Counted from the stretch's first letter, positions 24-12,548 are shown. The stretch is DNA of 12,548 nt from an uncultured Thermoplasmata archaeon (GCA_964399335.1 CAYNQI010000028.1:1-12548), one strand, 5' to 3'. Notes: generated from the sequence alone by a model not told the origin. Numbers and translations: made by a program.

Positions 24-3000
24 ATGAAAGGAGACGTATTGATAATCGGCGGCGGTATCTCCGGTGTACAAACGGCACTTGACCTGGCCGATAAGGGGTA
101 CGAAGTTGTTATTGTAGATCGAGCCCCCAGTATCGGTGGAAACATGGTCAAACTGGATAAGACCTTCCCCACGAACGACTGTTCTATATGTATATCCGCA
201 CCAAAGATGGTGGAAACCAGCAGGCATGAAAACATAACTCTTCTAACGTATTCAGAAGTTAAAGAAGTGAATGGTAGTGCCGGTGGTTTCAACATCAAGG
301 TTTGGAAAAGAACAAAATATGTAGATCCAGATGAGTGTACTGGATGTGGGGACTGTGAAAAAGTTTGTCCGGTAGAGGTACCAAATGAGTTTGATGAAAA
401 ATTGTCCACTAGAAAAGCTATCTATGTAGAGTATCCCCAGTCCGTACCACTTTCCTACACCATAGATTATGAGAACTGTGTAGGTTGTGGTGCTTGTGAA
501 AGGGTATGCGATGCAGGCTCTATCCACTTCTTAGAGAAATCTGAAGAGGTAGACCTTTCCGTAGGTAGTATCGTGGTCGCGACCGGATACGAGATGATGG
601 AACCCGACGTATGGAGGGAAGAGTACGGGTACGGTGAATATGATGACGTGCTCACCGCTATGGAGTATGAAAGATTACTCTCCTCCTCGGGTCCAACGGA
701 AGGTAAGATATTGAAGCCTTCTGATGGCGAAGAACCAGAAAGTATTGCTTGGATACAGTGTGTAGGTTCTAGATGTAAACAGAAAGGTATGCCCTACTGT
801 TCTAGAGTCTGCTGTATGTATGCGACCAAAGAAGCATCCATAACGAAAAATGACAACCCGGATATGGAAACTTCCATACACTACATGGATATGAGAACCT
901 ATGGTAAAGATTTCCAGCAGTATTACGATAAAGCCAAGGTCAACGGTGTGAATTATTACAGGGGTAGGCCTTCTAGGGTCTATGAAACAGAAGATGGAAA
1001 GTTAGCCATCGAATACGAGGACACTGAGAAAGGAGAGGTTAAAACAAACATCGTAGATATGGTGGTCCTTTCATCTGCTATAGTCCCCTCAAGCGGTAAC
1101 GAAAAGTTGGCTGATATTTTAGGTGTTGAAACCGATGAAAACGGTTTTTTCCGATCCGAAGATATTTTGACCGCTCCTATGGATTCCACAAGAGATGGTA
1201 TATATCTAGCAGGATGTTCTCAATCCCCAAAAGATATACCCGACAGTGTAGCACAAGCCAGTGGTGCTGCAGCTAGAGCCATGGGACCGATAAAGGACAG
1301 AAAAAGAAAGGGTAAAGCAGAGAAACCAGCTGAAAGGGATGTATCCGGAGAGCAACCCAGGATAGGTGTCTTCGTCTGCGACTGTGGTAAGAACATCGCT
1401 AATTACGTTGACGTACCAAGTGTGGCAGAATCCGTGAAAAAGGTACCCGGTGTAGTTCATGTTGACGAAAGTATGTTCGCTTGTTCCGAGGATGCTCAAT
1501 CTAAGATCAAGGAAGCTATTGAAGAGCACGATCTGAACAGGATAGTAGTTTCAGCTTGTTCACCTAGAACCCATGCAGACCTGTTCCAAGATACCATGGA
1601 AGAAGTCGGTTTGAACCGATATCTTTTCGAGATGGCAAACATCAGAAATCAGTGCAGCTGGGTTCACAGTGATGACCCGGAAAAGGCTACCAAGAAAGCG
1701 AAGATATTGACCAAGATGGCAGTAGCCAAGGCTAAGCAGTTATCAGCACTTACAGAACATGAGATCGAGGTCGGTGACAGAACGTTGGTCATAGGTGGAG
1801 GTCCAGCAGGTATGAAAACCGCTCTTAGCTTAGCGGATGCCGGTCAAGATGTAACTTTAGTCGAAAAGGAGGACAAACTCGGAGGAAAATTACTCAGATT
1901 GAATACCTTATTCCCGAGTGATATCGATTCTAGAGAATTGGCCAAGAAGATGGCCCACCAGATCGATGAAACTGATAATATCAGAGTGCTGACATCTTCA
2001 CAGGTCAAAGATATCGACGGTTACATCGGTAACTACGAAGTCACCATCGAAGACGAAAAGATAGAGGTCGATACCATCGTATTAACGACCGGTTTCAAAG
2101 AGATCGACCCAGATGACTTTTATGGATATAAAGATGACAGTCGGATCATGACACAGCTTGAACTCGATGAGGCATTAGCTTCGGATGAACTCGAGGATCC
2201 AAAAAATGTAGTGTTCATCAATTGTGTCGGCGCTCTAGAAGAGGATCGACCATGGTGCTGTAGAGTGGGTTGTGGAAACTCTCTTAAGAATGCAAAAGCC
2301 ATCAGAGAAAAATATCCGGATTCAAACGTTTACATCTTATACAAAGACATGAGGGTCTTCGGAAAGGACGAAGAAGAATACTATATGGATGTTGAGGGAG
2401 AAGACGGAGTGATCTTCCTAAGATATTCCACGGAGAACAAACCCGAAGTCACTCCTTCAGAGGACGGCCTTCACATAAAGGTCCACGATAACTTACTCGA
2501 TGAAGATGTAGAACTCGATTCCGATCTACTGGTTCTGGCCATGCAGTTAGAAGGTGACGAATCCACTTCTGAACTCAAGAAGATGTTGAAAGTATCTTCG
2601 GATAACGCTGGATTCTACATGGAAGCACACGCAAAACTAAGACCACTAGAGTTCCCATCAGAAGGAGTATATTTAGCGGGTGGGGCACATTATCCGAAGA
2701 ACATCTCAGATACATTATCCCAGGCCGATGGTGCAGCATCTAAGGCAGCCATACCCATGATGCGTGGATACACCAAGAGTGAAGGTATAATCGCGGTCAT
2801 AGATGATGATATCTGCAGTGGATGTAAGATGTGTATCTCGGTCTGTCCATACGGTGCAATAGAGGCAAACGAAGAAGAAGGGATCGCTGAGATCACTGAC
2901 GTACTCTGTAAAGGCTGTGGTTCATGTGCTAGTGTGTGTCCGGTTGGTGCTATAGATCAGAAGGGATTCGAAGATGATATGATCGATGCCATGATCAAAG

Positions 3001-3035
3001 CGGCTTTGATCGAAAGCGAGGAGGTGATCCGATGA
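24..3035 (+). CDS. hdrA: Heterodisulfide reductase subunit A, large tandem (two-FAD-module) form, ~1003 aa
   Basis: Two Rossmann motifs (IIGGGISG, VIGGGPAG); LDKTFPTNDCSIC; inserted ferredoxin CTGCGDCEKVCP / CVGCGACERVC; CVGSR...CSRVCCMYATK; internal HdrA N-terminal-type domain (VFVCDCG...ACS...ACSPRTH...CSWVH); C-terminal ferredoxin CSGCKMCISVCP / CKGCGSCASVCP. I prefer ATG 24 over the TTG 18 in the ORF track because the SD-like GGTAGG at 12-17 is better spaced for it. Confidence 0.95.
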   Translation: MKGDVLIIGGGISGVQTALDLADKGYEVVIVDRAPSIGGNMVKLDKTFPTNDCSICISAPKMVETSRHENITLLTYSEVKEVNGSAGGFNIKVWKRTKYVDPDECTGCGDCEKVCPVEVPNEFDEKLSTRKAIYVEYPQSVPLSYTIDYENCVGCGACERVCDAGSIHFLEKSEEVDLSVGSIVVATGYEMMEPDVWREEYGYGEYDDVLTAMEYERLLSSSGPTEGKILKPSDGEEPESIAWIQCVGSRCKQKGMPYCSRVCCMYATKEASITKNDNPDMETSIHYMDMRTYGKDFQQYYDKAKVNGVNYYRGRPSRVYETEDGKLAIEYEDTEKGEVKTNIVDMVVLSSAIVPSSGNEKLADILGVETDENGFFRSEDILTAPMDSTRDGIYLAGCSQSPKDIPDSVAQASGAAARAMGPIKDRKRKGKAEKPAERDVSGEQPRIGVFVCDCGKNIANYVDVPSVAESVKKVPGVVHVDESMFACSEDAQSKIKEAIEEHDLNRIVVSACSPRTHADLFQDTMEEVGLNRYLFEMANIRNQCSWVHSDDPEKATKKAKILTKMAVAKAKQLSALTEHEIEVGDRTLVIGGGPAGMKTALSLADAGQDVTLVEKEDKLGGKLLRLNTLFPSDIDSRELAKKMAHQIDETDNIRVLTSSQVKDIDGYIGNYEVTIEDEKIEVDTIVLTTGFKEIDPDDFYGYKDDSRIMTQLELDEALASDELEDPKNVVFINCVGALEEDRPWCCRVGCGNSLKNAKAIREKYPDSNVYILYKDMRVFGKDEEEYYMDVEGEDGVIFLRYSTENKPEVTPSEDGLHIKVHDNLLDEDVELDSDLLVLAMQLEGDESTSELKKMLKVSSDNAGFYMEAHAKLRPLEFPSEGVYLAGGAHYPKNISDTLSQADGAASKAAIPMMRGYTKSEGIIAVIDDDICSGCKMCISVCPYGAIEANEEEGIAEITDVLCKGCGSCASVCPVGAIDQKGFEDDMIDAMIKAALIESEEVIR
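3020..3029 (+). promoter_or_regulatory. Ribosome-binding site of mvhD (GGAGGTGATC)
   Basis: 10-nt match to the complement of the 16S rRNA 3' tail (GAUCACCUCC), lying within the last codons of hdrA just upstream of ATG 3032. Confidence 0.75.
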
Positions 3036-3460
3036 GTGAACAGTTCGAACCCAGGATCATAGCGTTTTTGTGCAATTGGTGTAGTTACGCCGGTGCGGAT
3101 CTAGCTGGAGTAAGTAGGGAACAGTACCCTCCTAATATACTGAACATCAAGGTCATGTGCTCGTCTAGGGTTTCACCCGAACACGTTTTCGAATCGTTCA
3201 AAGACGGTGCCGACGGTGTTTTAGTAGCTGGGTGCCATCCAGGTGACTGCCATTATATCGATGGGAATTACAAAACTATGAGGAAGCACGAACTGTTGAA
3301 AACGATGTTGAAAGACTTCGGTATCGATCCTGATAGACTAAAATTGGAATGGGTCTCATCTGCTGAAGGTGGGAAGTTTGCAAGGATCATGAGAGAGATG
3401 ACCGAAGAGATCAGGGAACTGGGACCACTTGAATTAGATGGTCATGAGGTGGAAGAATGA
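3032..3460 (+). CDS. mvhD: Methyl-viologen-reducing hydrogenase delta subunit ([2Fe-2S] MvhD/FlpD family)
   Basis: FLCNWCSYAGAD, MCSSRV, GCHPGDCHY and WVSSAEG motifs; ATGA overlap with hdrA; SD GGAGGTGATC at 3020-3029. Confidence 0.95.
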   Translation: MSEQFEPRIIAFLCNWCSYAGADLAGVSREQYPPNILNIKVMCSSRVSPEHVFESFKDGADGVLVAGCHPGDCHYIDGNYKTMRKHELLKTMLKDFGIDPDRLKLEWVSSAEGGKFARIMREMTEEIRELGPLELDGHEVEE

Positions 3461-4428
3461 GCGAAAAAAAGAAGATCGGTTTCTACTGGTGCGGTGCCTG
3501 TGGAGGATGTGAAGTAAGTGTTTTAGACATCGATGAGATGATCTTGGATGTTGTTGACCAGGCTGATATAGTGTTCTGGCCCTGCGCCATGGACTTGAAG
3601 TATTCAGATGTAGAAGACATGGAAGACGACGAGATGGATTTTATCTTCATAAACGGTTCCATACGGTCCGAGGAGAACGAGGAACTGGTAAAATTATTGA
3701 GGAAAAAGAGTAAGAACGTGGTAGCATACGGTTCCTGTTCCAGTATCGGTGGACTCTTCGGATTGGGTAATCTGTACAGTAGAGAATCTTTACTTGAAAC
3801 GGGTTACACAACTGAGTCTACGGAAGGTGAACTGATACCTCAAAAGAAAAGTGAAGTCCAAGAAGGAGAGTTAGACCTTCCAGAATTGAATCATCACGTA
3901 GTACCTTTGAAAGAGATCATAGAAGTAGATTATTTCTTACCTGGTTGTCCACCACTGCCTAATCAGTTGGAGGAAGCTTTCCCAGCACTATTGGGCGATG
4001 AAGAAGTCGGTAAATACGATCTGATCTCTGAGAAAAGCGTATGTGATGTTTGTCCACTAGAAAGAGAAGAAAAAAAGATAGAAGAGTTGAAACCGATACA
4101 AGAAGTGAATTTGAACCCAGATGACTGTATATTGGATCAAGGTGTATTGTGTATGGGACCTGCTACGGCAGGTATGTGCGATGCACCGTGTCCCGAAGTG
4201 GGTCATCCGTGTATCGGGTGTAATGGACCTGTAAGAGGAGTAGCTGACCAGGGTGGTAGAATGGCTTCTGCCTTGGCATCGGTCATCGCCATCGAAGGTG
4301 AAGAAAAAAGAACTGAAAAAGAAGTGCACGAAACCATGAAATCCGTAAGGGATCCAACTGGGTCTTTCTACCGATTCAGTCTTCCCAGCAGTATACTCCA
4401 GTTTAAAAGGGGTGATTCAGATGAGTGA
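3457..4428 (+). CDS. mvhG: [NiFe] hydrogenase small subunit, MvhG type
   Basis: Proximal-cluster motifs CGACGGC, AYGSC, PGCPP; C-terminal CDVC...CILDQGVLCMGPAT...CDAPCP...CIGCNGP; no Tat signal peptide visible; lies between mvhD and mvhA. Confidence 0.93.
   Translation: MSEKKKIGFYWCGACGGCEVSVLDIDEMILDVVDQADIVFWPCAMDLKYSDVEDMEDDEMDFIFINGSIRSEENEELVKLLRKKSKNVVAYGSCSSIGGLFGLGNLYSRESLLETGYTTESTEGELIPQKKSEVQEGELDLPELNHHVVPLKEIIEVDYFLPGCPPLPNQLEEAFPALLGDEEVGKYDLISEKSVCDVCPLEREEKKIEELKPIQEVNLNPDDCILDQGVLCMGPATAGMCDAPCPEVGHPCIGCNGPVRGVADQGGRMASALASVIAIEGEEKRTEKEVHETMKSVRDPTGSFYRFSLPSSILQFKRGDSDE
4409..4416 (+). promoter_or_regulatory. Ribosome-binding site of mvhA (GGGGTGAT)
   Basis: SD-like octamer 4 nt before ATG 4421; the identical octamer precedes hdrB. 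Confidence 0.65.
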
Positions 4429-5887
4429 GGAAAATAAGATTTCAATAGACCCTATAACAAGATTAGAAGGTCACGGTAAGATAGAGATATTTTTAGATGA
4501 TGACAAGAACGTAAAGAATGCATATCTTCAGGTTCCGGAATTCAAAGGTTTTGAGAAATTTTGTGAAGGCAGAAGAGCAGAGGATATGCCGACCATAACC
4601 AGCAGGATATGCGGTGTTTGTCCAGTAGCACATCATCTGGCTTCCACAAAAGCCTTGGACCAAGCTTATGATGTTGAACCCCCTGAACCTGCTAAGAAGC
4701 TGAGAGAACTTTTCTATAACGGTTACATCTATGCAGATCACCTACTGCACTTTTACTACCTGGCAAGCCCAGATTTTTTGGTAGGTGTCGATGCTCCTAA
4801 AGAAGCTAGAAATATCCTGGGAGTCATAGAAAAGGTCGGATTGGATATAGGTAAAAAGGTGATCAAACAGAGGGGTAAAGGTCAGAAGATCATCAGTATG
4901 CTCGGAGGTAAAGCAGTCCATCCTTGTTTCGGTGTTCCAGGTGGTGTGACGAAATCATTGAGTGCTGAAGAAAGACAACAACTCATAGAGATGTCCGAAG
5001 ACATGGTGGATTTCGCTAAGTTCACTTTAGATCTATTCAAGGATAAAGTAGTAGGTGAGTTCGAAGATGTCATCAAAGAGGACAAGTTAGAAGTTTACAG
5101 TATGGGTCTTACTCAAGATGGTAAACTCAGCCACACTGGAGGTGTGGTCAACGTTGTCGATCCCGAAGGTAAGGATTTTGCTCAATTCACAGATAAAGAT
5201 TATCTAGATGTGATAAGAGAACACACTGAATCGTGGAGTTACATGAAGTTCCCTTACCTGAAGGACATAGGATGGAAGGGATTTGAAGAAGGTGAAGACT
5301 CCGGAGTTTACAGAGTTGGCACATTAGGAAGGATCAATGCCTGCGACGGCATGAAGACTGAATTAGCGCAGGAAGAATATGAAGAGATGTTCGACACCTT
5401 GGGGTATCCGGTCCATTCCACACTTGCATATCACTGGGCCCGGTTGATAGAAATTTTACAGTCCGCTGAATTGATCCAAGAATTAGCTCAAGATGAAGAC
5501 TTAGAAAGCGATAATATCAGGAACGAACCAGGTGAACCCGGTAAGGGCGTTGGTATAGTTGAAGCTGCTAGAGGTACGTTGATTCACGATTATGAACTAG
5601 ATGATGATGGTTTAGTTAAGGAGTCTAACTTGATAGTAGCTACAAACCATAATGCAGCCCCGATATCTATGAGTGTTAGGGATGCTGCAAAGAAGTACGT
5701 CGATGCCGGTGACATACAGGAAGGCATGCTCAACAGTGTAGAAAGAGCGTTCAGGGCCTACGACCCATGCCTTGCTTGTGCGACCCATTCGACCATGGGA
5801 GAAACTCCGCTCAAGGTGAACATCTACGACTCGAAAGGTGAAAAGTATCGTGAACTTAACCAGGGATTAGGTGGTGAGGAACAATGA
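4421..5887 (+). CDS. mvhA: [NiFe] hydrogenase large subunit, group 3c (MvhA) type, ~488 aa
   Basis: ITRLEGHG; L1 [11 protein letters not shown] (4604-4636); L2 DPCLACATH (5762-5788) followed by a 32-aa C-terminal extension. I prefer ATG 4421 over GTG 4412, which lies inside the SD GGGGTGAT at 4409-4416. The group 3c call rests on the mvhD/hdr context. Confidence 0.93.
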
Positions 5888-6279
5888 AAGTAGATAGAAG
5901 CAAAAAAGCCATGGAATTTTTGGATAAAGTTGAAGAGTTATCCGGAGAATCGGTCAATGCATGTATAAGATGTGGAACCTGTTCAGCTGGATGTCCTTTT
6001 GTTGAAGATATGGACGTATTACCGGAGCGGATATTCAAAAGGATAGTTCTTGGTGATAAAGAAGGGATCTTAGAGAAAAACACCATGTGGATATGTGCGG
6101 CCTGTTTCACCTGCAGCGTAAGATGTCCCAGGGACATAGATATCGCCAAGATAATGGAGGCCGTCAGGCAGATAGTACTTCGAGACAACATCGACATGGT
6201 AGATATAGATGAAGTAGAAAATATGAAAGAGCTCCCACAGCTTGCAGTAGTTGGCTGTTTCAGGAAGGAGACGGGGTGA
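5884..6279 (+). CDS. hdrC: Heterodisulfide reductase subunit C (short, 2x[4Fe-4S])
   Basis: CIRCGTCSAGCP and WICAACFTCSVRCPRDI motifs; 131 aa; directly upstream of the CCG-domain gene. Confidence 0.9.
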   Translation: MKVDRSKKAMEFLDKVEELSGESVNACIRCGTCSAGCPFVEDMDVLPERIFKRIVLGDKEGILEKNTMWICAACFTCSVRCPRDIDIAKIMEAVRQIVLRDNIDMVDIDEVENMKELPQLAVVGCFRKETG

Positions 6280-6280
6280 T
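6273..6280 (+). promoter_or_regulatory. Ribosome-binding site of hdrB (GGGGTGAT)
   Basis: Overlaps the hdrC stop codon, 3 nt before ATG 6284. Confidence 0.65.
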
Positions 6281-6283
6281 AAC

Positions 6284-7135
6284 ATGGAAGAAGGATACCT
6301 ATATTATCCCGGATGTACTCTAAAAACCAAAGCCAGTGATTACGAAGAAAGTGCCATGGCCGTCATGGAAGCCCTAGGAAAACCTCTGGTGGAGATGGAT
6401 GATTGGTACTGCTGTGGTGCAGTACAGTCTTTGACTGAAGACGACATAATGCATCAGATAGCACCGATAAGGACCATGTGCTGTGCCCAGGAACAGGGTG
6501 AAAAAGAAGTCGTTACCTTGTGTGATATGTGTTACAACGTTTTAAAGCAGGCTAACGAAAGGATGAAAGAAAAACCTGATGACCTGGAAACTATGAATGA
6601 GTTCTTGACCGAGGACCCTGATTACTTAGGCGAAGTCGATGTTCATCATATATTCGAGATATTAAGGGATATGAAAGATGAGATCAAAAAGAAAGTTAAA
6701 AAACCGATTACCGATCTAAAGATCGCACCATATTATGGGTGTATGTTGTTAAGGCCTGATCATGTGGCGATAGATGATACCGAGGACCCCCATATCATGG
6801 AGGGTCTCCTTGAAACCATCGGTGCAGATGTTATCCACAACCCCAAAAGGACCGAATGCTGTGGTTCCTATCACACCGTCAATCGAAGTGATATCGTTGA
6901 GAAGCGGGTTGAGGATATCGTGTCAAGGGCTGTAAAAGATGGTGCCGATGCCATCGCTTTATCCTGTCCGTTATGTCAATTCAATCTCGATTTCCATCAA
7001 AGAAATACCGATTACGATATACCGGTATTCTATTTGACAGAACTCATTGCACTAGCTATGGGTATCGAAGTCGGGATGGAAAAACACAAGATCGATCCGA
7101 GATCATTACTGAAAGATAAAAAAATCCTGGAGTGA
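6284..7135 (+). CDS. hdrB: Heterodisulfide reductase subunit B (two CCG domains), ~283 aa
   Basis: YYPGC-x31-CC-x35-CDMC and YYGC-x38-CC-x34-CPLC; all ten CCG cysteines are present. I prefer ATG 6284 (SD GGGGTGAT at 6273-6280) over TTG 6251. Confidence 0.92.
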   Translation: MEEGYLYYPGCTLKTKASDYEESAMAVMEALGKPLVEMDDWYCCGAVQSLTEDDIMHQIAPIRTMCCAQEQGEKEVVTLCDMCYNVLKQANERMKEKPDDLETMNEFLTEDPDYLGEVDVHHIFEILRDMKDEIKKKVKKPITDLKIAPYYGCMLLRPDHVAIDDTEDPHIMEGLLETIGADVIHNPKRTECCGSYHTVNRSDIVEKRVEDIVSRAVKDGADAIALSCPLCQFNLDFHQRNTDYDIPVFYLTELIALAMGIEVGMEKHKIDPRSLLKDKKILE

Positions 7136-7141
7136 TATGAT

Positions 7142-7846
7142 ATGAGTGAAGATGAAGAAAATAGAGAGATGATCGAAATATTCGTTATGGGTAAAAGATA
7201 CAAGGTCCCGAAGGGACTCACCATAATGACAGCACTCGAATACGCTGGATACAAGTTCGTTAGAGGCTGTGGATGTAGAGGTGGGTTCTGTGGTGCCTGT
7301 GCCACGATATATAGAACTGAAGATGAGTATAAATTCAAGATGGATCTAGCCTGTCAAACCGCCGTACAAGACGGTATGTTCTTAGTACAGCTTCCTTTCG
7401 TACCGGCTGTTAGAGAGGATTTTGACATAGAAGAAGTGGATCCAAAAGACAACGACAACGTTATGCTTGATTATTACTCTGAGATAGCAAGATGTGTTTC
7501 CTGTAACACTTGTACCAAAGCATGCCCACAGGACATAGAAGTGATGGATTATGTTCAAGCAGCGCTGCGAGGTGACATCGAGAGATGCGCTGAACTTTCC
7601 TTCGACTGTATCCAGTGTGGTCTCTGTTCGATAAGATGCCCGGCGGATATCAAACATTATCACTTAGCTCAGTTAGCTCGCAGGATAACTGGAAGATACA
7701 TACACGAGCATAGCGAGGAACTCGAAAAGCGTGTTCAAAAGATCAAGAACGGAGAATATGATGATAAGATGAAAGAGATGGTAGAGATGGAGATGGAAGA
7801 ACTCAAAAAACTTTACGAAGAAAGAGATATACGGGAGGAGGGATAA
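7142..7846 (+). CDS. SdhB/FrdB/TfrB-like iron-sulfur subunit ([2Fe-2S] + 2x[4Fe-4S]), soluble
   Basis: C45-x4-C50-x2-C53...C71 [2Fe-2S] motif (CRGGFCGAC...LACQ); CVSCNTCTKACP and CIQCGLCSIRCP; adjacent to the Sdh/Frd-family flavoprotein; no CCG domain or transmembrane segment. Confidence 0.8.
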   Translation: MSEDEENREMIEIFVMGKRYKVPKGLTIMTALEYAGYKFVRGCGCRGGFCGACATIYRTEDEYKFKMDLACQTAVQDGMFLVQLPFVPAVREDFDIEEVDPKDNDNVMLDYYSEIARCVSCNTCTKACPQDIEVMDYVQAALRGDIERCAELSFDCIQCGLCSIRCPADIKHYHLAQLARRITGRYIHEHSEELEKRVQKIKNGEYDDKMKEMVEMEMEELKKLYEERDIREEG

Positions 7847-7848
7847 AG

Positions 7849-9501
7849 ATGTCAGATGGTTACCCAGATTATATGCGAGAATCCATCAAGAAGGTGGAGG
7901 AAACACGTAAAGAAAGGATGGGTAAAAACTACGATAGGATGACCCCCTCCGAAGGTGAAGAGGTTCTGAACAACTTCCACCCGGACTACAAAAAAGAGGG
8001 GAAAGAAGAACTTAAGATAGGACCCAGTAAAGGTCGAAAGGTACCTACTGAACTTGCCAAACTTTTACGAGCTAGAAGTCTTATCGACCCTTCAGAGATC
8101 GATTTAACACAGGTAGATTATGACGTGGATGTTCTGATCATAGGTGGAGGAGGAGCCGGAACTGTAGCAGCACTGTGGTCGGTTTACGAGGGTATCGAGC
8201 CCGAGAATATACTCATATCGACCAAATTGAGACACGGGGATTCTAACAGTATGATGGCACAGGGTGGTATGCAGGCTGCAGATAGAGATGATGATTCACC
8301 GGTCAGACATTATTTGGATGCCATAGGTGGAGGACATTTCACAAATGTTCCCGAGTTGGTCAAAGCATTGACCATCGACGGCCCCAAGATCTTAAAATGG
8401 CACGAAGAACTAGGTATAATGTACGATAGAGAGGAAGACGGTAACTTCGTTGAACTTCCCGGTGGTGGAACCTCTAGGTACAGACTTCATTCATCCGGTG
8501 ATTATACCGGTATGGAATTGATGAGAGTCCTAAGAGATGAGGCCGAGAACCTTGATATCCCTGTATTAGAATTCACTCCAGCCGTTGAACTGTTGAAGGA
8601 TGACAAAGGTCAGGTGGCAGGTGCACTGCTCATGAACCTGGAGACCAATGAATACTATGTAGTCAGAGCCAAATCTACCGTCATGGCAACCGGTGGTTTC
8701 GGTAGGTTACATGTACAGGCATTCCCGACCACGAATCATTACGGTGCCACAGGAGATGGATTGATCATGGGATATAGAGCTGGTGTTCCCATAAGAGATC
8801 TTGACAGTGTTCAGTACCATCCCACTGGAGCAGCTTTCCCAGACCAGATCGTCGGACTGCTTGTTACAGAAAAGGTAAGGAGTCTAGGCGCTCAACCGGT
8901 GAATATGGATGGTGAACTTTTCGTTAATCCGTTAGAACCTAGAGATATAGAAGCGGCAGCCATCATAAGAGAATGCAAAGGTAGAGAGAAAGGAGTTACT
9001 ACCCCGACAGGCATGCAGGGTGTATGGCTTGACTCACCACTGATCGAGATGAAATCTGGAGAGGGTACTATCGAAAAGACCTTACCTGCCATGGTCAGGC
9101 AGTACGAGAGGTTCGGCATCGATATAACTAAAGAACCGATCTTAGTTTACCCGACACTGCATTATCAGAATGGAGGGCTGGTCATCAATGACGACGGTTC
9201 GACTCCGGTCAAAGGACTCTTCGCAGGCGGCGAAGTGGAAGGCGGCGTTCACGGTAAAAACAGATTGATGGGAAATTCACTTTTAGATTACAACGTATTC
9301 GGTAGAAGAGCAGGTCTAACTGCCGCAAAACACGCTAAGAAAGCTTCCATCGGAGAACTCACATTGGATCATGTGGATGATTACAACCAGCAGATCGAAG
9401 ATGCTGGGATCAAGACCGATAGGAAATCCCCATTATTATTACCAGAATATAGAGGTAAGAAGGTCCTTGAAAGACATCTTGATGTTGAAGTTACACTATA
9501 A
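7849..9501 (+). CDS. Fumarate reductase/succinate dehydrogenase-family flavoprotein (SdhA/FrdA/TfrA-like), atypical architecture
   Basis: DVLIIGGGGAG Rossmann motif; SNSMMAQGG; ATGGFGR; TGDG; QYHPT; TEKVR; LEPRD; HYQNGG; HGKNRLMGNSL. The family is clear; the exact substrate is not. Confidence 0.85.
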   Translation: MSDGYPDYMRESIKKVEETRKERMGKNYDRMTPSEGEEVLNNFHPDYKKEGKEELKIGPSKGRKVPTELAKLLRARSLIDPSEIDLTQVDYDVDVLIIGGGGAGTVAALWSVYEGIEPENILISTKLRHGDSNSMMAQGGMQAADRDDDSPVRHYLDAIGGGHFTNVPELVKALTIDGPKILKWHEELGIMYDREEDGNFVELPGGGTSRYRLHSSGDYTGMELMRVLRDEAENLDIPVLEFTPAVELLKDDKGQVAGALLMNLETNEYYVVRAKSTVMATGGFGRLHVQAFPTTNHYGATGDGLIMGYRAGVPIRDLDSVQYHPTGAAFPDQIVGLLVTEKVRSLGAQPVNMDGELFVNPLEPRDIEAAAIIRECKGREKGVTTPTGMQGVWLDSPLIEMKSGEGTIEKTLPAMVRQYERFGIDITKEPILVYPTLHYQNGGLVINDDGSTPVKGLFAGGEVEGGVHGKNRLMGNSLLDYNVFGRRAGLTAAKHAKKASIGELTLDHVDDYNQQIEDAGIKTDRKSPLLLPEYRGKKVLERHLDVEVTL

Positions 9502-9513
9502 GGTGAAAAACCG

Positions 9514-9783
9514 ATGACTGAAGTTAAGAATAAAGAGAAAAAAGGAAAAGCCTTCCGCGGTGGAGATAAATTTTCCATCGAGGTAGATGAAGATTACTGT
9601 AAGGGCTGTAATCTATGTATTTATTACTGTCCTAGAGACGCTTTAGATGAATCTGAAGAACCTAACAAGAAAGGGCTTTATCCACCCGTACAAGTCGAAG
9701 ATAGATGTATCGGCTGCAGGATGTGTGAACTGATCTGTCCGGATTTTGCGATAACTATCGTGGAGGAAGATGAAGATGAGTGA
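9514..9783 (+). CDS. korD: 2-oxoacid:ferredoxin oxidoreductase delta subunit (2x[4Fe-4S] ferredoxin-like)
   Basis: CKGCNLCIYYCP and CIGCRMCELICPDFAI; NKKGLYPP segment; first gene of a delta-alpha-beta-gamma block; SD AGGTGA at 9501-9506. Confidence 0.85.
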   Translation: MTEVKNKEKKGKAFRGGDKFSIEVDEDYCKGCNLCIYYCPRDALDESEEPNKKGLYPPVQVEDRCIGCRMCELICPDFAITIVEEDEDE

Positions 9784-10930
9784 AGATCTAGAAAAAGCTA
9801 AGAAAGTTATAGGTAAAAAGAAACAGTTCATCCATGGTGACACCGCCATCGCATACGGTGCACTATTAGCAGGATGTAGATTCTTTGGAGGCTATCCTAT
9901 AACTCCGGCTTCCGAGATAGCTGAGAAGATGGCAGAGATGCTGCCAAGGGTCGGTGGTAAATACATACAGATGGAAGACGAACTGGGAAGTATAGCATCA
10001 GTGATAGGTTCTTCCTGGGCAGGTGCAAAAGCCATGACAGCTACGAGTGGTCCGGGTTTCTCACTCATGCAGGAAAATATAGGTTTTGCTCACATGTCGG
10101 AAACACCCTTGGTTTTAGCGAACGTTCAGCGTTCAGGCCCTTCTACAGGTCAACCAACATTAGGTGCTCAAGGAGATATCATGCAGACCAGGTATGGAAC
10201 CCATGGAGATATCGCTGCTATCACGTTATCACCTAATAACATCCAAGAAACATTAGATTACACTATACGGGCCTTCAACCTAGCAGAAGAGTACAGAACT
10301 CCGGTTTTCCTTATGATATGTGCCGACGTCGGTCACATGCGTGAGATGGTCGAGATACCCGACGAGGTAGAAACATTCGAGAGGAAGAAACCGAAAGTAC
10401 CTCCAAGCGAATATGTACCTTTCGGAGAAGGTCAGTATGGGAAGAAAAAAGTTCCAGAATTCGGTGTTTTCGGAGAAGGATACCATACTTACGTGACAGG
10501 ACTCACCCACGATAAATACGGATTCCCTGCAACTGATGATCAAAAGGATCATGAAACACTGATAATGAGACAGGTCGAAAAGATACTGGATGATAGAGAA
10601 GTCTTAACCGATGTGGAGAAGAGAAACCTAGATGATGCCGATGTTGCCATCGTGTCTTATGGTATCGCCAGTCGTAGCGCCATCGGTGCTATGAACAAAG
10701 GACGAGAAAAAGGTATGAACATAGGTTATCTTAGGATGAAGACCTTATGGCCTTTCCCTATAAAAGAGATCGAAGAATTATCCAAGAAAGTTGATAAGAT
10801 CGTAGTAGCTGAGATGAATTTGGGTCAGATGTTCCATAAAGTCAGGGAGCACGCTGATTGTGAAGTCGTTCTAGCTTCTAAGATAGGTGGAGAGATCCAT
10901 TCACCCGACGAGATACTCAGGGAGGTCTAA
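9776..10930 (+). CDS. korA: 2-oxoacid (probably 2-oxoglutarate):ferredoxin oxidoreductase alpha subunit, ~384 aa
   Basis: GYPITPASE, QMEDE, ATSGPGFSLMQE, QRSGPSTGQPT, EMNLGQ motifs. I prefer ATG 9776 over 9770 because of its spacing from SD GGAGGA at 9762-9767. The family is certain; substrate specificity is inferred from the D-A-B-C gene order. Confidence 0.88.
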   Translation: MSEDLEKAKKVIGKKKQFIHGDTAIAYGALLAGCRFFGGYPITPASEIAEKMAEMLPRVGGKYIQMEDELGSIASVIGSSWAGAKAMTATSGPGFSLMQENIGFAHMSETPLVLANVQRSGPSTGQPTLGAQGDIMQTRYGTHGDIAAITLSPNNIQETLDYTIRAFNLAEEYRTPVFLMICADVGHMREMVEIPDEVETFERKKPKVPPSEYVPFGEGQYGKKKVPEFGVFGEGYHTYVTGLTHDKYGFPATDDQKDHETLIMRQVEKILDDREVLTDVEKRNLDDADVAIVSYGIASRSAIGAMNKGREKGMNIGYLRMKTLWPFPIKEIEELSKKVDKIVVAEMNLGQMFHKVREHADCEVVLASKIGGEIHSPDEILREV

Positions 10931-10932
10931 AC

Positions 10933-11793
10933 ATGGATGAGAAAAAAGAAGAAAGGAATACACAAGATATGAGAGAAAAGTACCTCCGAAAAGATATGAT
11001 GCCCACTATATTTTGTACCGGGTGTGGTATCGGTAACGTATTGAATTACACTTTACGTGCTATAGAGAAACAGGGCCTCGACATGGATAAAACCGTGATA
11101 TTATCTGGTATCGGTTGTTCCTCACGTCTTCCGGGTTACGTGGATGTAGATTCATTACATACTACACATGGAAGAGCTCTTGCCTTTGCTACAGGAGTCA
11201 AGATCACTAATCCTGATCTGAACGTTATCGTGTTCACCGGAGACGGTGACTGTATGGGTATCGGTGGAAATCATTTCATCCACGCGGCTCGAAGAAATAT
11301 CGATATGACCGTTATAGCGGTCAATAATTTCATTTACGGTATGACTGGAGGGCAGGTAGCTCCGACTACTCCTGAAGGAGATTATGCTACAACAGCTCCC
11401 TTCGGAAATATAGAACCGGCCTTCGATATGAGCAGCATGGCGATCTCGTCCGGTGCATCTTATGTAGCTAGGTGGACAGTAACCAAGCCTTCTCAGCCTA
11501 TAAACTCCATAGCCGAGGCGTTAGAGAACAAAGGTTTCAGTTTCATTGAGATGCTTTCACCGTGTACAACTGCTTATGCCAGACAGAATAAGGTGGGAAG
11601 CTTGAGAGAATTCTGGAACTGGTATGATAAAAAGACTATATTGACCGAAGATTACGAGATGCTTAAGAAATACGGAGATCCTGAAGAGATCGAGAAACTC
11701 TATGAAAACATCCAAACCGGAGTGTTGCATAAAGAGGAGAAGGAATGTCTCAGTGATCGTTTGAAACGCCTCATCGAGGAGGTGCAGGTATGA
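10933..11793 (+). CDS. korB: 2-oxoacid:ferredoxin oxidoreductase beta subunit (TPP-binding)
   Basis: FCTGCG, GIGCSSR, HGRA, TPP motif GDGD...NN (GDGDCMGIGGNHFIHAARRN...NNFIYGMTGGQ), SPC; four cluster cysteines present. Confidence 0.9.
   Translation: MDEKKEERNTQDMREKYLRKDMMPTIFCTGCGIGNVLNYTLRAIEKQGLDMDKTVILSGIGCSSRLPGYVDVDSLHTTHGRALAFATGVKITNPDLNVIVFTGDGDCMGIGGNHFIHAARRNIDMTVIAVNNFIYGMTGGQVAPTTPEGDYATTAPFGNIEPAFDMSSMAISSGASYVARWTVTKPSQPINSIAEALENKGFSFIEMLSPCTTAYARQNKVGSLREFWNWYDKKTILTEDYEMLKKYGDPEEIEKLYENIQTGVLHKEEKECLSDRLKRLIEEVQV
11778..11784 (+). promoter_or_regulatory. Ribosome-binding site of korC (GGAGGTG)
   Basis: Lies within the last codons of korB, 5 nt before ATG 11790. Confidence 0.65.
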
Positions 11794-12311
11794 GAAGAGA
11801 TATCCGCATCTGTGGAAAAGGTGGTCAAGGGATAATGTTAGCAGGTTACATCTTGGGTAAAGCCGCCAGTGTTTTCCACGAGTACAATTCTGTTCAGATG
11901 CAGAGTTACGGACCTGAAGCGAGAGGTGGCGCCGCTCGATCTGAAGTAGTTATATCCGATGAAGAGATAGGGTACTGTGGATTGTATTCAGCAGAGTACA
12001 TGATGGTCATGTCCCAGGAGGCTTACAATAAATACACCGACGACCTGGCAGATGATGCTGTAGTCGTTCTAGATCCAGATCTTGTTCCACATGCTGAGAT
12101 GGAAGATGCTTATGAAATTCCAGTTACACGTTTGGCAGAAGAACTAGGTAACAAGATCGTTGCCAATATTATCATGCTGGGAGCGTTCAATGAAGTCGCT
12201 GAACTGGTCCCTGAACAAGCTCTAAGAGATTCCGTAAAAGACAGTGTACCAGGTAGGTTCATAGACCTGAACATGAAAGCAGTGGATACTGGAATAGAGT
12301 ATTTCAGGTAA
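11790..12311 (+). CDS. korC: 2-oxoacid:ferredoxin oxidoreductase gamma subunit
   Basis: GKGGQG, SYGPEARGGAARSEV, NIIMLGA and NMKA motifs; ATGA overlap with korB. Confidence 0.88.
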   Translation: MRRDIRICGKGGQGIMLAGYILGKAASVFHEYNSVQMQSYGPEARGGAARSEVVISDEEIGYCGLYSAEYMMVMSQEAYNKYTDDLADDAVVVLDPDLVPHAEMEDAYEIPVTRLAEELGNKIVANIIMLGAFNEVAELVPEQALRDSVKDSVPGRFIDLNMKAVDTGIEYFR

Positions 12312-12335
12312 CTCCAAAAACTTTTTATCTTTTTT
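12312..12335. terminator. Probable bidirectional oligo-T (archaeal-type) terminator between convergent genes
   Basis: T5 at 12322-12326 and T6 at 12330-12335 on + after the korC stop; A5 at 12316-12320 (T5 on the - strand) after the HEAT-gene stop; no GC-rich hairpin. Confidence 0.5.
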
Positions 12336-12548
12336 AATTAGATTTTTGATGCCTATTTATCCTTTGTAATACTTCACCTGCTATCTCTCTGACTTTAGGG
12401 GATGGATCTTCTTGAGCAAGATTTTCAAGTATAGGTCGAGCTTCAGTATCTGATAAATCACCTAGGGCTTTTACAGCGGTATATCTAACTTCACCATGAG
12501 GGTCCTCTAGCATCTTTAGCAGGTCCTCTTTCACATCTTTGCCACCTA
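12334..12548 (-). CDS. 3' part of a HEAT/PBS-lyase-like repeat protein (5' end probably outside the window)
   Basis: The frame stays open to the window edge (xGGKDVKEDLLKMLEDPHGEVRYTAVKALGDL...LAQEDPSPKVREIAGEVL). It shows two HEAT-like units with the L-x-D-x3-4-VR-x2-A-x2-(A)L pattern. The GTG at 12534 is probably an internal Val. Confidence 0.75.
   Translation of the reverse strand, partial: GGKDVKEDLLKMLEDPHGEVRYTAVKALGDLSDTEARPILENLAQEDPSPKVREIAGEVLQRINRHQKSN

Follow-up and report, generated by a model that had tools for sequence, protein, structure and literature searches.

A candidate H2:fumarate/ferredoxin operon on the Mvh-Hdr plan, with a Kor gene set, in a Thermoplasmata archaeon

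The operon described here fills positions 24-12311 of a 12,548-nt stretch of DNA (the window), which is an entire contig (C28) of a Thermoplasmata metagenome-assembled genome (MAG) comprising 1.57 Mb on 212 contigs and about 80% complete. Its 12 genes code for a hydrogenase-heterodisulfide reductase module (HdrA, MvhD, MvhG, MvhA, HdrC, HdrB), for an iron-sulfur (Fe-S) protein and a flavoprotein that resemble the subunits of fumarate reductase (Frd), and for the four subunits of a 2-oxoacid:ferredoxin oxidoreductase (KorDABC). We rate the chance as slightly better than even that the operon specifies a soluble, quinone- and cytochrome-free H2:fumarate/ferredoxin oxidoreductase on the Mvh-Hdr plan, together with a Kor enzyme that would consume its ferredoxin. 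This reading draws on the gene content, on cofactor ligands, catalytic residues and folds that were observed directly, and on the conserved linkage of the genes. An earlier note on this DNA had proposed a self-contained circuit leading from H2 to fumarate and ferredoxin and feeding Kor. Comparative genomics supports such a putative circuit and also its placement in the segment fumarate-succinate-2-oxoglutarate, since fumarase, succinyl-CoA synthetase and malic enzyme were the commonest extra neighbours in related loci.

Linkage of the genes in related loci

The flavoprotein was searched for in one genome per prokaryote species, which returned 79 loci. Neighbours were tallied at 78 of them by mapping the 12 proteins of the operon onto the loci and clustering all neighbouring open reading frames (ORFs). 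The flavoprotein gene was accompanied by the Fe-S gene at 68 loci, by HdrB at 49, by HdrA at 43 and by MvhA and KorA at 31 each; further neighbours were a class I fumarase (23 loci), SucC (10) and malic enzyme (7). At the 60 loci with less than 70% identity the counts were 35 for HdrB, 30 for HdrA, 19 for fumarase, 17 for MvhA and 13 for KorA. The distant archaeal loci were labelled Methanofastidiosa, Asgard and Bathyarchaeota, the bacterial ones Atribacteria, Acetothermia, Elusimicrobiota, Clostridia, Chloroflexi, Desulfofundulus, Desulfovirgula, Syntrophaceae and Gammaproteobacteria. The co-location of the Hdr/Mvh, Frd-like and Kor blocks, on which the earlier note had made its proposal depend, is thus found in relatives from many phyla and in several gene orders.

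The position of Kor is particularly variable. It lies downstream of the Frd-like pair in the operon studied here, upstream of hdrA in L020, L025, L027 and L039, between the pair and hdrA in L031, L032 and L034, and 3 kb away, behind aconitase and isocitrate dehydrogenase (IDH), in Syntrophaceae-like loci. Because Kor holds four different positions, selection on the linkage is indicated rather than shared ancestry of a single arrangement, and because the linkage recurs in dozens of distant genomes in rearranged orders, it goes beyond chance. A linkage that is rearranged and yet persists is the strongest available evidence that these blocks may be functionally coupled, and its presence across the 78 loci is strong genomic evidence for a predicted fumarate-linked Hdr system.

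Within this variable setting, HdrC-HdrB-FeS-flavoprotein formed a conserved four-gene unit across archaeal and bacterial phyla, even at loci that lacked HdrA. The donor modules differed among the loci and were of the Mvh type, of an NAD(P)H type or represented by a 365-aa Fe-S protein, which indicates a modular system. This 365-aa protein has one Fer4_17 region and no NCBIfam match. It was encoded between mvhD and the Fe-S gene, in place of hdrCB, in loci of Clostridia, Chloroflexi and some Thermoplasmata (L045, L046, L049, L052, L056 and L065, at about 8040-9290 in each, besides L032, L042 and L058-L060), and may serve as another kind of connector. A sulfhydrogenase-beta/AsrA-like gene came after it in L032, L042 and L058-L060.

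Other arrangements were also seen. Four Syntrophaceae-like loci (L054, L055, L073, L077) had the order TctA-PrpD-PrpF-flavoprotein-FeS-aconitase-IDH-KorDABC with no Hdr nearby and a tricarboxylate- or methylcitrate-like flavour. In the gammaproteobacterial loci L075 and L078 homologues of the Frd-like pair (46% identity) adjoined KorAB. Two contigs, L012 from a 'Syntrophomonadaceae' bin (PUKQ01000058) and L003 from a 'Spirochaetaceae' bin (PWGF01000061), carried the archaeal operon at 96-100% protein identity, the KorA of L012 being identical to that of the operon; they are probably mis-binned Thermoplasmata from the same soda-lake sediment. The core module was seen in the cultured organisms Anoxynatronum sibiricum, A. 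buryatiense, Desulfofundulus australicus and Desulfovirgula thermocuniculi.

The fumarate reductase-like pair

In an alignment with E. coli SdhA and the Sdh of M. smegmatis the flavoprotein kept the HPT His, the TE..R motif, the catalytic Arg-Asp, the HY..GG His and the H..NRL Arg. The corresponding residues H324, E341, R344, R365, H438 and R472 were invariant in 45 homologues that were 43-93% identical to it. The dicarboxylate function assumed in the earlier note is therefore upheld at the level of residues, all those expected to bind the dicarboxylate or to act in catalysis being present. The fold agrees: the AlphaFold model (predicted local distance difference test, pLDDT, 89.5; predicted template-modelling score 0.89) had E. 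coli FrdA (1kf6_A, E 2e-33) as its top Foldseek match. The protein thus has the PF00890 FAD/capping fold, the His-Arg-His-Arg dicarboxylate site and the catalytic Arg of a Complex II flavoprotein; the PF02910 domain and the His that binds FAD covalently are absent. Pfam gave no match to the C-terminal domain PF02910, and the alignment stopped near residue 500-520 of 550. The covalent-FAD His is replaced by Asn133, which was invariant across the same 45 homologues, and we read the FAD as non-covalently bound. Because both the catalytic residues and Asn133 are invariant, the remodelling is a trait of the family and not a sign of decay.

Residues 1-90 of the flavoprotein (positions 7849-8118) form an N-terminal extension that is conserved across phyla, contains invariant His44-Pro45-Asp46 and Gly58 and was modelled with high confidence. 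It may dock a partner or stand in for the absent C-terminal domain.

The Fe-S subunit has one [2Fe-2S] motif (Cx4Cx2Cx17C) and two [4Fe-4S] motifs, and its 12 cysteines were invariant in 41 homologues. This cluster inventory, [2Fe-2S] plus 2x[4Fe-4S], agrees with that of SdhB/FrdB. When its AF2 (AlphaFold 2) model (pLDDT 85.6) was compared domain by domain (VIA-align), the C-terminal domain was nearest to the HdrC-type dicluster fold (Z 11.4) and the N-terminal domain to the NuoG-type 2Fe-2S fold. The subunit scored 26.5 bits against the SdhB model TIGR00384 (cut-off 88), its Pfam matches were Fer2_4/Fer2 and not Fer2_3 (the PF13085 class), and a sequence search of the PDB gave generic ferredoxin matches and no SdhB. 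A fusion of the TfrB type is not present, as the Fe-S subunit lacks a CCG domain and the CCG protein is encoded by a separate gene. The domain labels of the earlier note agree overall with the Pfam and NCBIfam content; they need amending in that HdrA is a tandem fusion of 1003 aa, the 'SdhA-like' protein has PF00890 without PF02910 and SdhB models give poor scores for the 'SdhB-like' protein.

Among curated NCBIfam models the best match of the flavoprotein was TfrA (337 bits; cut-off 718), and the Fe-S subunit scored 40 bits against TfrB (cut-off 385). L-aspartate oxidase was rejected as an identity for the flavoprotein because the MAG has a separate NadB, above the TIGR00551 cut-off and beside NadC. 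Where E. coli NadB has its specificity Glu, the flavoprotein has Gly. A tricarballylate- or aconitate-type dehydrogenase was not favoured either, as fumarase, SucCD and malic enzyme dominate among the neighbours and TfrA is the best curated match.

It might still be asked whether the pair acts on another unsaturated or substituted di- or tricarboxylate (of the aconitate or tricarballylate type, or methyl-substituted) and not on plain fumarate. All family members have Gly205 in place of the Phe of the FGG motif of FrdA/SdhA, which enlarges the pocket; every curated Frd, Sdh and Tfr model stayed under its cut-off, and the Syntrophaceae-type loci surround the pair with TctA, PrpD, PrpF, aconitase and IDH. 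On the other hand, all ligands of a C4-dicarboxylate are invariant, fumarase leads the extra neighbours, with SucCD and malic enzyme next, and tricarballylate dehydrogenase was absent from the top 25 NCBIfam matches, which TfrA heads among curated models. Nor did the MAG contain a second candidate for fumarate reductase. We therefore think a different substrate improbable.

Composition and layout of the operon

ORF calling of the contig filled the region with 12 ORFs, all on the + strand (Table 1). If the likeliest ATG is taken as the start of each gene, the successive junctions measure -4, -4, -8, -4, +4, +6, +2, +12, -14, +2 and -4 nt. An ATG start was assigned in 12/12 genes and each was preceded, at 5-10 nt, by a GGAGG/GGTG-like motif resembling a Shine-Dalgarno (SD) sequence. 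The mvhA ORF opens at GTG 4412 and the SD-like motif stands before ATG 4421. The tight spacing of 12 co-directional genes noticed earlier is thus confirmed (junctions of -14 to +12 nt), and the gaps at 7135/7142 and 9501/9514, two junctions singled out at the time, are 6 and 12 nt. The same holds for the lack of a membrane subunit: in none of the 12 proteins did a 19-residue window reach a Kyte-Doolittle value of 1.6, so no membrane helix was predicted, and none qualified as a membrane anchor subunit of the Complex II type. All 12 proteins have an acidic composition, as expected for a salt-in halophile; the host is a salt-lake archaeon. A scan for bacterial promoters and terminators showed no enrichment, these models being bacterial and not applicable to an archaeal host.

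Table 1. Genes of the operon and features at its 3' end
Feature	Position	Strand	Evidence or remark
Tandem-fused HdrA, 1003 aa	24-3035	+	NCBIfam HdrA2 1064.5 bits, just below the 1100 cut-off
MvhD, [2Fe-2S] adaptor between hydrogenase and HdrA	3032-3460	+	Pfam FlpD PF02662, E 1.3e-54
MvhG, small subunit of F420-non-reducing [NiFe] hydrogenase	3457-4428	+	Pfam PF01058; best NCBIfam match VhuG, 212 bits, under cut-off
MvhA, [NiFe] hydrogenase large subunit	4421-5887	+	Best NCBIfam match VhuA, 422 bits
Short HdrC-like protein, 131 aa	5884-6279	+	NCBIfam HdrC TIGR03290, E 2e-19, under cut-off
HdrB/SdhE-like protein	6284-7135	+	Pfam CCG x2; PDB HdrB, E 1.7e-31
Fe-S subunit of Frd-like pair	7142-7846	+	Pfam Fer2_4/Fer2 and Fer4; without CCG domain
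Frd/Sdh-family flavoprotein, 550 aa	7849-9501	+	Pfam PF00890, E 1e-68
KorD, delta subunit, 2x[4Fe-4S]	9514-9783	+	Best NCBIfam matches OGOR_delta and OorD, under cut-offs
KorA, alpha subunit	9770-10930	+	NCBIfam PRK08659, 536 bits, above the 411 cut-off
KorB, thiamine pyrophosphate-binding beta subunit	10933-11793	+	NCBIfam 2-oxoglutarate:ferredoxin oxidoreductase beta, 292 bits; cut-off 364
KorC, gamma subunit	11790-12311	+	Pfam POR PF01558; NCBIfam PRK08537, 206 bits; cut-off 235
T-rich stretch 3' of korC	12312-12345	+	Sequence reading; likely archaeal transcription stop
Convergent ORF after korC	12334-12546	-	Runs off the contig end

None of the six subunit types was missing from the Mvh-Hdr part, and the cofactor ligands were intact throughout, namely those of the NiFe site, MvhD, the FAD and Fe-S clusters of HdrA, two [4Fe-4S] clusters in HdrC and two CCG motifs in HdrB. 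Equivalog-level scores were not reached, every curated Hdr and Vhu model staying under its cut-off. HdrA aligned with the PDB entry 8rvu_a (E 5e-225) in a permuted manner, residues 7-421 matching 154-568, 439-598 matching 4-163 and 854-999 matching 512-655. Alignment and Cys motifs show that its halves are complementary. The N-terminal half has the thioredoxin-reductase-like FAD domain with the inserted 2x[4Fe-4S] ferredoxin domain and lacks the N- and C-terminal domains, whereas the C-terminal half has the HdrA N-terminal domain, a second, divergent FAD domain and the C-terminal 2x[4Fe-4S] ferredoxin domain and lacks the inserted one; residues 854-999 cover the end of the FAD domain and the C-terminal ferredoxin domain of the solved HdrA. 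Full-length relatives of this tandem HdrA (54-57% identity) occurred in L031, L032 and L034.

MvhA retains its two metal-binding motifs in intact form (RICGVC...H and DPCLAC..H), and after them comes a C-terminal tail for protease processing. The HdrC-like protein carries two CxxCxxCxxxCP motifs. In the HdrB-like protein both CCG motifs are complete, which by cysteine reading provides the ligands of two non-cubane [4Fe-4S] clusters; NCBIfam matched it about equally well to the SdhE anchor (E 1.3e-45) and to HdrB (E 3.1e-44), both under cut-off.

KorDABC corresponds to the four-subunit Kor/Oor enzymes: KorA scored above its cut-off, and the other three subunits had Kor/Oor models as their best matches, under cut-off. 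In the PDB, KorA matched 1yd7_A (E 1e-133) and the 2-oxoglutarate synthase 8ys5_A (E 4e-85), and the pyruvate enzyme only at E 1e-16; the best match of KorB was the beta subunit of 2-oxoglutarate:ferredoxin oxidoreductase (8ys5_C, E 2e-69). From these similarities and from the linkage to fumarase, SucCD and the Frd-like pair we infer specificity for 2-oxoglutarate. At least three further 2-oxoacid:ferredoxin oxidoreductase gene sets are present in the MAG (contigs C4, C134, C31 and C5), the KorA on C4 being 49% identical.

Genome context

As the window is a whole contig, the upstream context of the operon had to be inferred from relatives. Fumarase alpha and beta and SucD lie on contig C58, which ends inside fumarase alpha (C58 4314-5644). 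This end aligns colinearly with what lies immediately upstream of hdrA in a Saliniplasma relative with 93% identity (L028), which makes fumarase almost certainly the divergent upstream neighbour of hdrA. C58 and C28 are thus probably adjacent, separated by about 340 bp; fumarase would be read in the divergent direction, and SucD would lie upstream beyond it.

By tblastn, HdrA, HdrB, HdrC and MvhD were found only in the operon. The only other flavoprotein of the Frd family in the MAG was the NadB mentioned above, and no other fumarate reductase candidate was detected. SucC, malic enzyme and a group-4-type hydrogenase subunit were present. Matches to citrate-synthase-type (PF00285) and IDH genes were not found in this 80%-complete MAG, and neither was McrA (genes for coenzyme M (CoM) and coenzyme B (CoB) biosynthesis were not searched for). 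Methanogens use an incomplete reductive branch from malate via fumarate, succinate and succinyl-CoA to 2-oxoglutarate. The gene pattern of the MAG, with no McrA, citrate synthase or IDH found, fits a reductive branch of this methanogen-like kind.

Proposed electron path and alternatives

In the proposed scheme H2 would be oxidised at MvhA, and MvhG and MvhD would hand the electrons on to the tandem HdrA with its bifurcating FAD. From this FAD the low-potential electron would leave by the HdrA ferredoxin domains to ferredoxin. The high-potential electron would travel through HdrC and the CCG clusters of HdrB to the Fe-S subunit and on to the non-covalent FAD, where fumarate would be reduced to succinate. 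Fumarate would thus take the place of CoM-S-S-CoB (a heterodisulfide) as acceptor. KorDABC would use one reduced ferredoxin for each succinate-derived succinyl-CoA converted to 2-oxoglutarate, a 1:1 match, and surplus ferredoxin could go to the group-4-type hydrogenase. The physical complex, the bifurcation, its direction and the direct relay from HdrB to the Fe-S subunit are all inferred. The fumarate potential has been quoted as +33 mV (PMC5861303). From standard potentials, comparing H2 (-414 mV) with the two acceptors fumarate (+33 mV) and ferredoxin (about -500 mV) averaged, we estimate a driving force of about +180 mV, which exceeds that of the heterodisulfide system.

The acceptor side could also be organised as in methanogens, with Mvh-Hdr reducing a disulfide and a Tfr-like enzyme re-oxidising the thiols with fumarate, so that no direct wire exists. 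HdrB indeed has both complete CCG motifs of a disulfide-reducing site, Methanothermobacter TfrAB works in this mode (Heim 1998, as cited in PMC6315080), and the Sifarchaeia authors assume it. However, the HdrB of the operon is the only one detected in the MAG, and a CCG domain is absent from the Fe-S subunit. This would leave both half-reactions to one CCG site and a thiol shuttle without a second catalytic site. McrA was not found in the MAG, with the limits on that search given above, and the HdrC-HdrB-FeS-flavoprotein unit is conserved even where HdrA is missing. We regard the thiol circuit as unlikely. Since the shuttle would lack its second site, a direct relay from HdrB to the Fe-S subunit is the simpler reading, and TfrB (fused) and the SdhE of type E enzymes offer precedents by analogy for a CCG protein that exchanges electrons with an SdhB-type subunit.

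If this is taken a step further, the two non-cubane clusters of HdrB might be a pure electron relay and not a disulfide-reducing site, giving a thiol-free wire HdrA-HdrC-HdrB-FeS-FAD with fumarate as the direct high-potential acceptor. This could be the role of 'orphan' Mvh-Hdr in non-methanogenic Thermoplasmata, Asgard, Bathyarchaeota, Atribacteria and others, and would amount to quinone- and cytochrome-free fumarate respiration if coupled to a ferredoxin-oxidising membrane hydrogenase; Kor, too, might dock on the complex. We put forward this wider proposal only tentatively, and would sooner bet against it.

The earlier note had also considered that the same complex runs in reverse in amino-acid fermentation, with reduced ferredoxin made by Kor and electrons from succinate confurcated at HdrA to H2. 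Relatives have been described as fermentative anaerobes (PMC11287216), Asgard papers assume an H2-evolving Mvh-Hdr (PMC9723677), and the 1:1 stoichiometry, the malic enzyme and SucCD would fit this direction too. With the potentials used above, however, we estimate that it would be exergonic only below about 0.1 Pa H2, which is under typical syntrophic levels, and it would be worse at alkaline pH. The covalent-FAD His is needed for efficient succinate oxidation in SdhA/FrdA, and it is Asn in every member of the family. For these reasons the reverse direction is unlikely, and thermodynamically it is implausible.

Finally, that the operon merely places independent enzymes on one transcript (Mvh-Hdr with an unnamed acceptor, a stand-alone fumarate reductase and Kor) has little probability in our view, for although operons can group the enzymes of one pathway without physical contact and some family members have neither Hdr nor Kor inside 10 kb, the Frd-like pair comes without a donor module (it has neither an NAD(P)H domain nor an anchor or a CCG domain) and archaeal and bacterial phyla share the gene order HdrCB-FeS-flavoprotein.

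Several observations weigh against an H2:fumarate/ferredoxin oxidoreductase coupled to Kor. The Fe-S subunit is weakly SdhB-like, the whole-chain Foldseek matches to FrdB/SdhB being weak (TM about 0.28), and every curated Tfr, Sdh, HdrB and HdrC model scored under its cut-off. The change from Phe to Gly in the pocket makes a bulkier substrate possible. Many family members have neither Mvh nor Kor nearby and carry other donor modules instead. In the KorA tree the deep nodes were without resolution and the MAG paralogues stood on long branches, which leaves undecided whether the cluster-linked Kor form a single orthologous lineage. The absences noted in the MAG are soft because it is 80% complete.

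The question at stake is which acceptor Mvh-Hdr serves in archaea and bacteria without the cofactors of methanogenesis, and the operon and its relatives point to fumarate. It can be made concrete as an assay of H2- and fumarate-dependent ferredoxin reduction without added thiol, which is feasible because cultured carriers of the core module exist. If the proposal is true, fumarate would be a new class of acceptor for flavin-based bifurcation, the source of low-potential ferredoxin for 2-oxoglutarate synthesis in such anaerobes would be explained, and fumarate reduction independent of the membrane could still conserve energy through ferredoxin.

Comparison with known systems

No biochemically characterised Hdr complex of this composition was known to the earlier note, and the literature that we found agrees. 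In archaeal papers the Hdr acceptor is left open (PMC8163825) or CoM/CoB with thiol:fumarate reductase is assumed (PMC9723677). We found no explicit proposal of an H2-driven, Kor-containing archaeal operon, only Flx versions and assumptions of Tfr plus thiol.

The MvhAGD-HdrABC of hydrogenotrophic methanogens (PDB 5odc, 8rvu) has the same subunit set and cofactor motifs, and the HdrA, HdrB and HdrC of such enzymes were the best matches among solved structures. Its acceptor is CoM-S-S-CoB, whereas no McrA was found here; in addition, the HdrA of the operon is a fused pseudo-dimer, its HdrC is short (131 aa) and the Fe-S and flavoprotein genes follow hdrB. Methanothermobacter TfrAB (Heim et al. 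1998) shares the cofactors FAD, [2Fe-2S], 2x[4Fe-4S] and two CCG motifs; it is likewise soluble and serves the reductive branch to 2-oxoglutarate. In TfrB, however, the Fe-S and CCG parts are fused, while here they are encoded by separate genes with an extra HdrC; the scores are far under the Tfr cut-offs, and the flavoprotein differs by its N-terminal extension and by the missing C-terminal domain. In type E succinate:quinone oxidoreductase/MFR (SdhABE) an SdhB-type subunit has an HdrB-like CCG protein docked to it as an electron relay, a precedent for direct transfer from HdrB to an Fe-S subunit, and the SdhE anchor is the best NCBIfam match of the HdrB-like protein. Those enzymes are membrane-associated and quinone-linked, of which there is no sign here.

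The closest parallels are gene clusters fed by NADH. Rubin-Blum et al. (2019, PMC6315080) described korABCD and tfrAB interspersed with flxABCD-hdrABC, and proposed a complex feeding 2-oxoglutarate:ferredoxin oxidoreductase and fumarate reductase. Carriers of this cluster are tubeworm symbionts, Thioflavicoccus mobilis and Bipolaricaulia; its co-expression has been shown in Riftia symbionts (Mitchell et al. 2024, PMC11636981), and Bipolaricaulia are named as carriers in bioRxiv 10.1101/2023.11.26.568696. As in the operon, hdrABC, a two-gene tfrAB-like enzyme and a four-subunit Kor are interspersed. The donor there is NADH via FlxABCD, in contrast to H2 via MvhAGD here; those organisms have a full reductive tricarboxylic acid cycle with ATP-citrate lyase, whereas the 80%-complete MAG gave no citrate-synthase-type or IDH match; and the HdrA of the operon is a tandem fusion. 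Neither system is known as a purified complex. The 'succinate operon' of Pseudoclostridium thermosuccinogenes (PMC7282089) combines fumarase, Flx-Hdr and a two-gene fumarate reductase, and a preprint by Koendjbiharie and van Kranenburg (2019), as cited there, proposed a bifurcating fumarate reductase. By description it resembles our operon in its soluble two-gene fumarate reductase, Hdr and fumarase and in the proposed coupling of succinate formation to ferredoxin reduction. This bacterium is cultured and excretes succinate; its donor is NADH and its operon has no Kor. The concept of a fumarate-linked Hdr is already published for these NADH-fed Flx versions (Rubin-Blum 2019; Koendjbiharie 2019/2020), and the Thermoplasmata operon would represent a hydrogenase-fed variant, with tandem HdrA, of the same predicted enzyme system.

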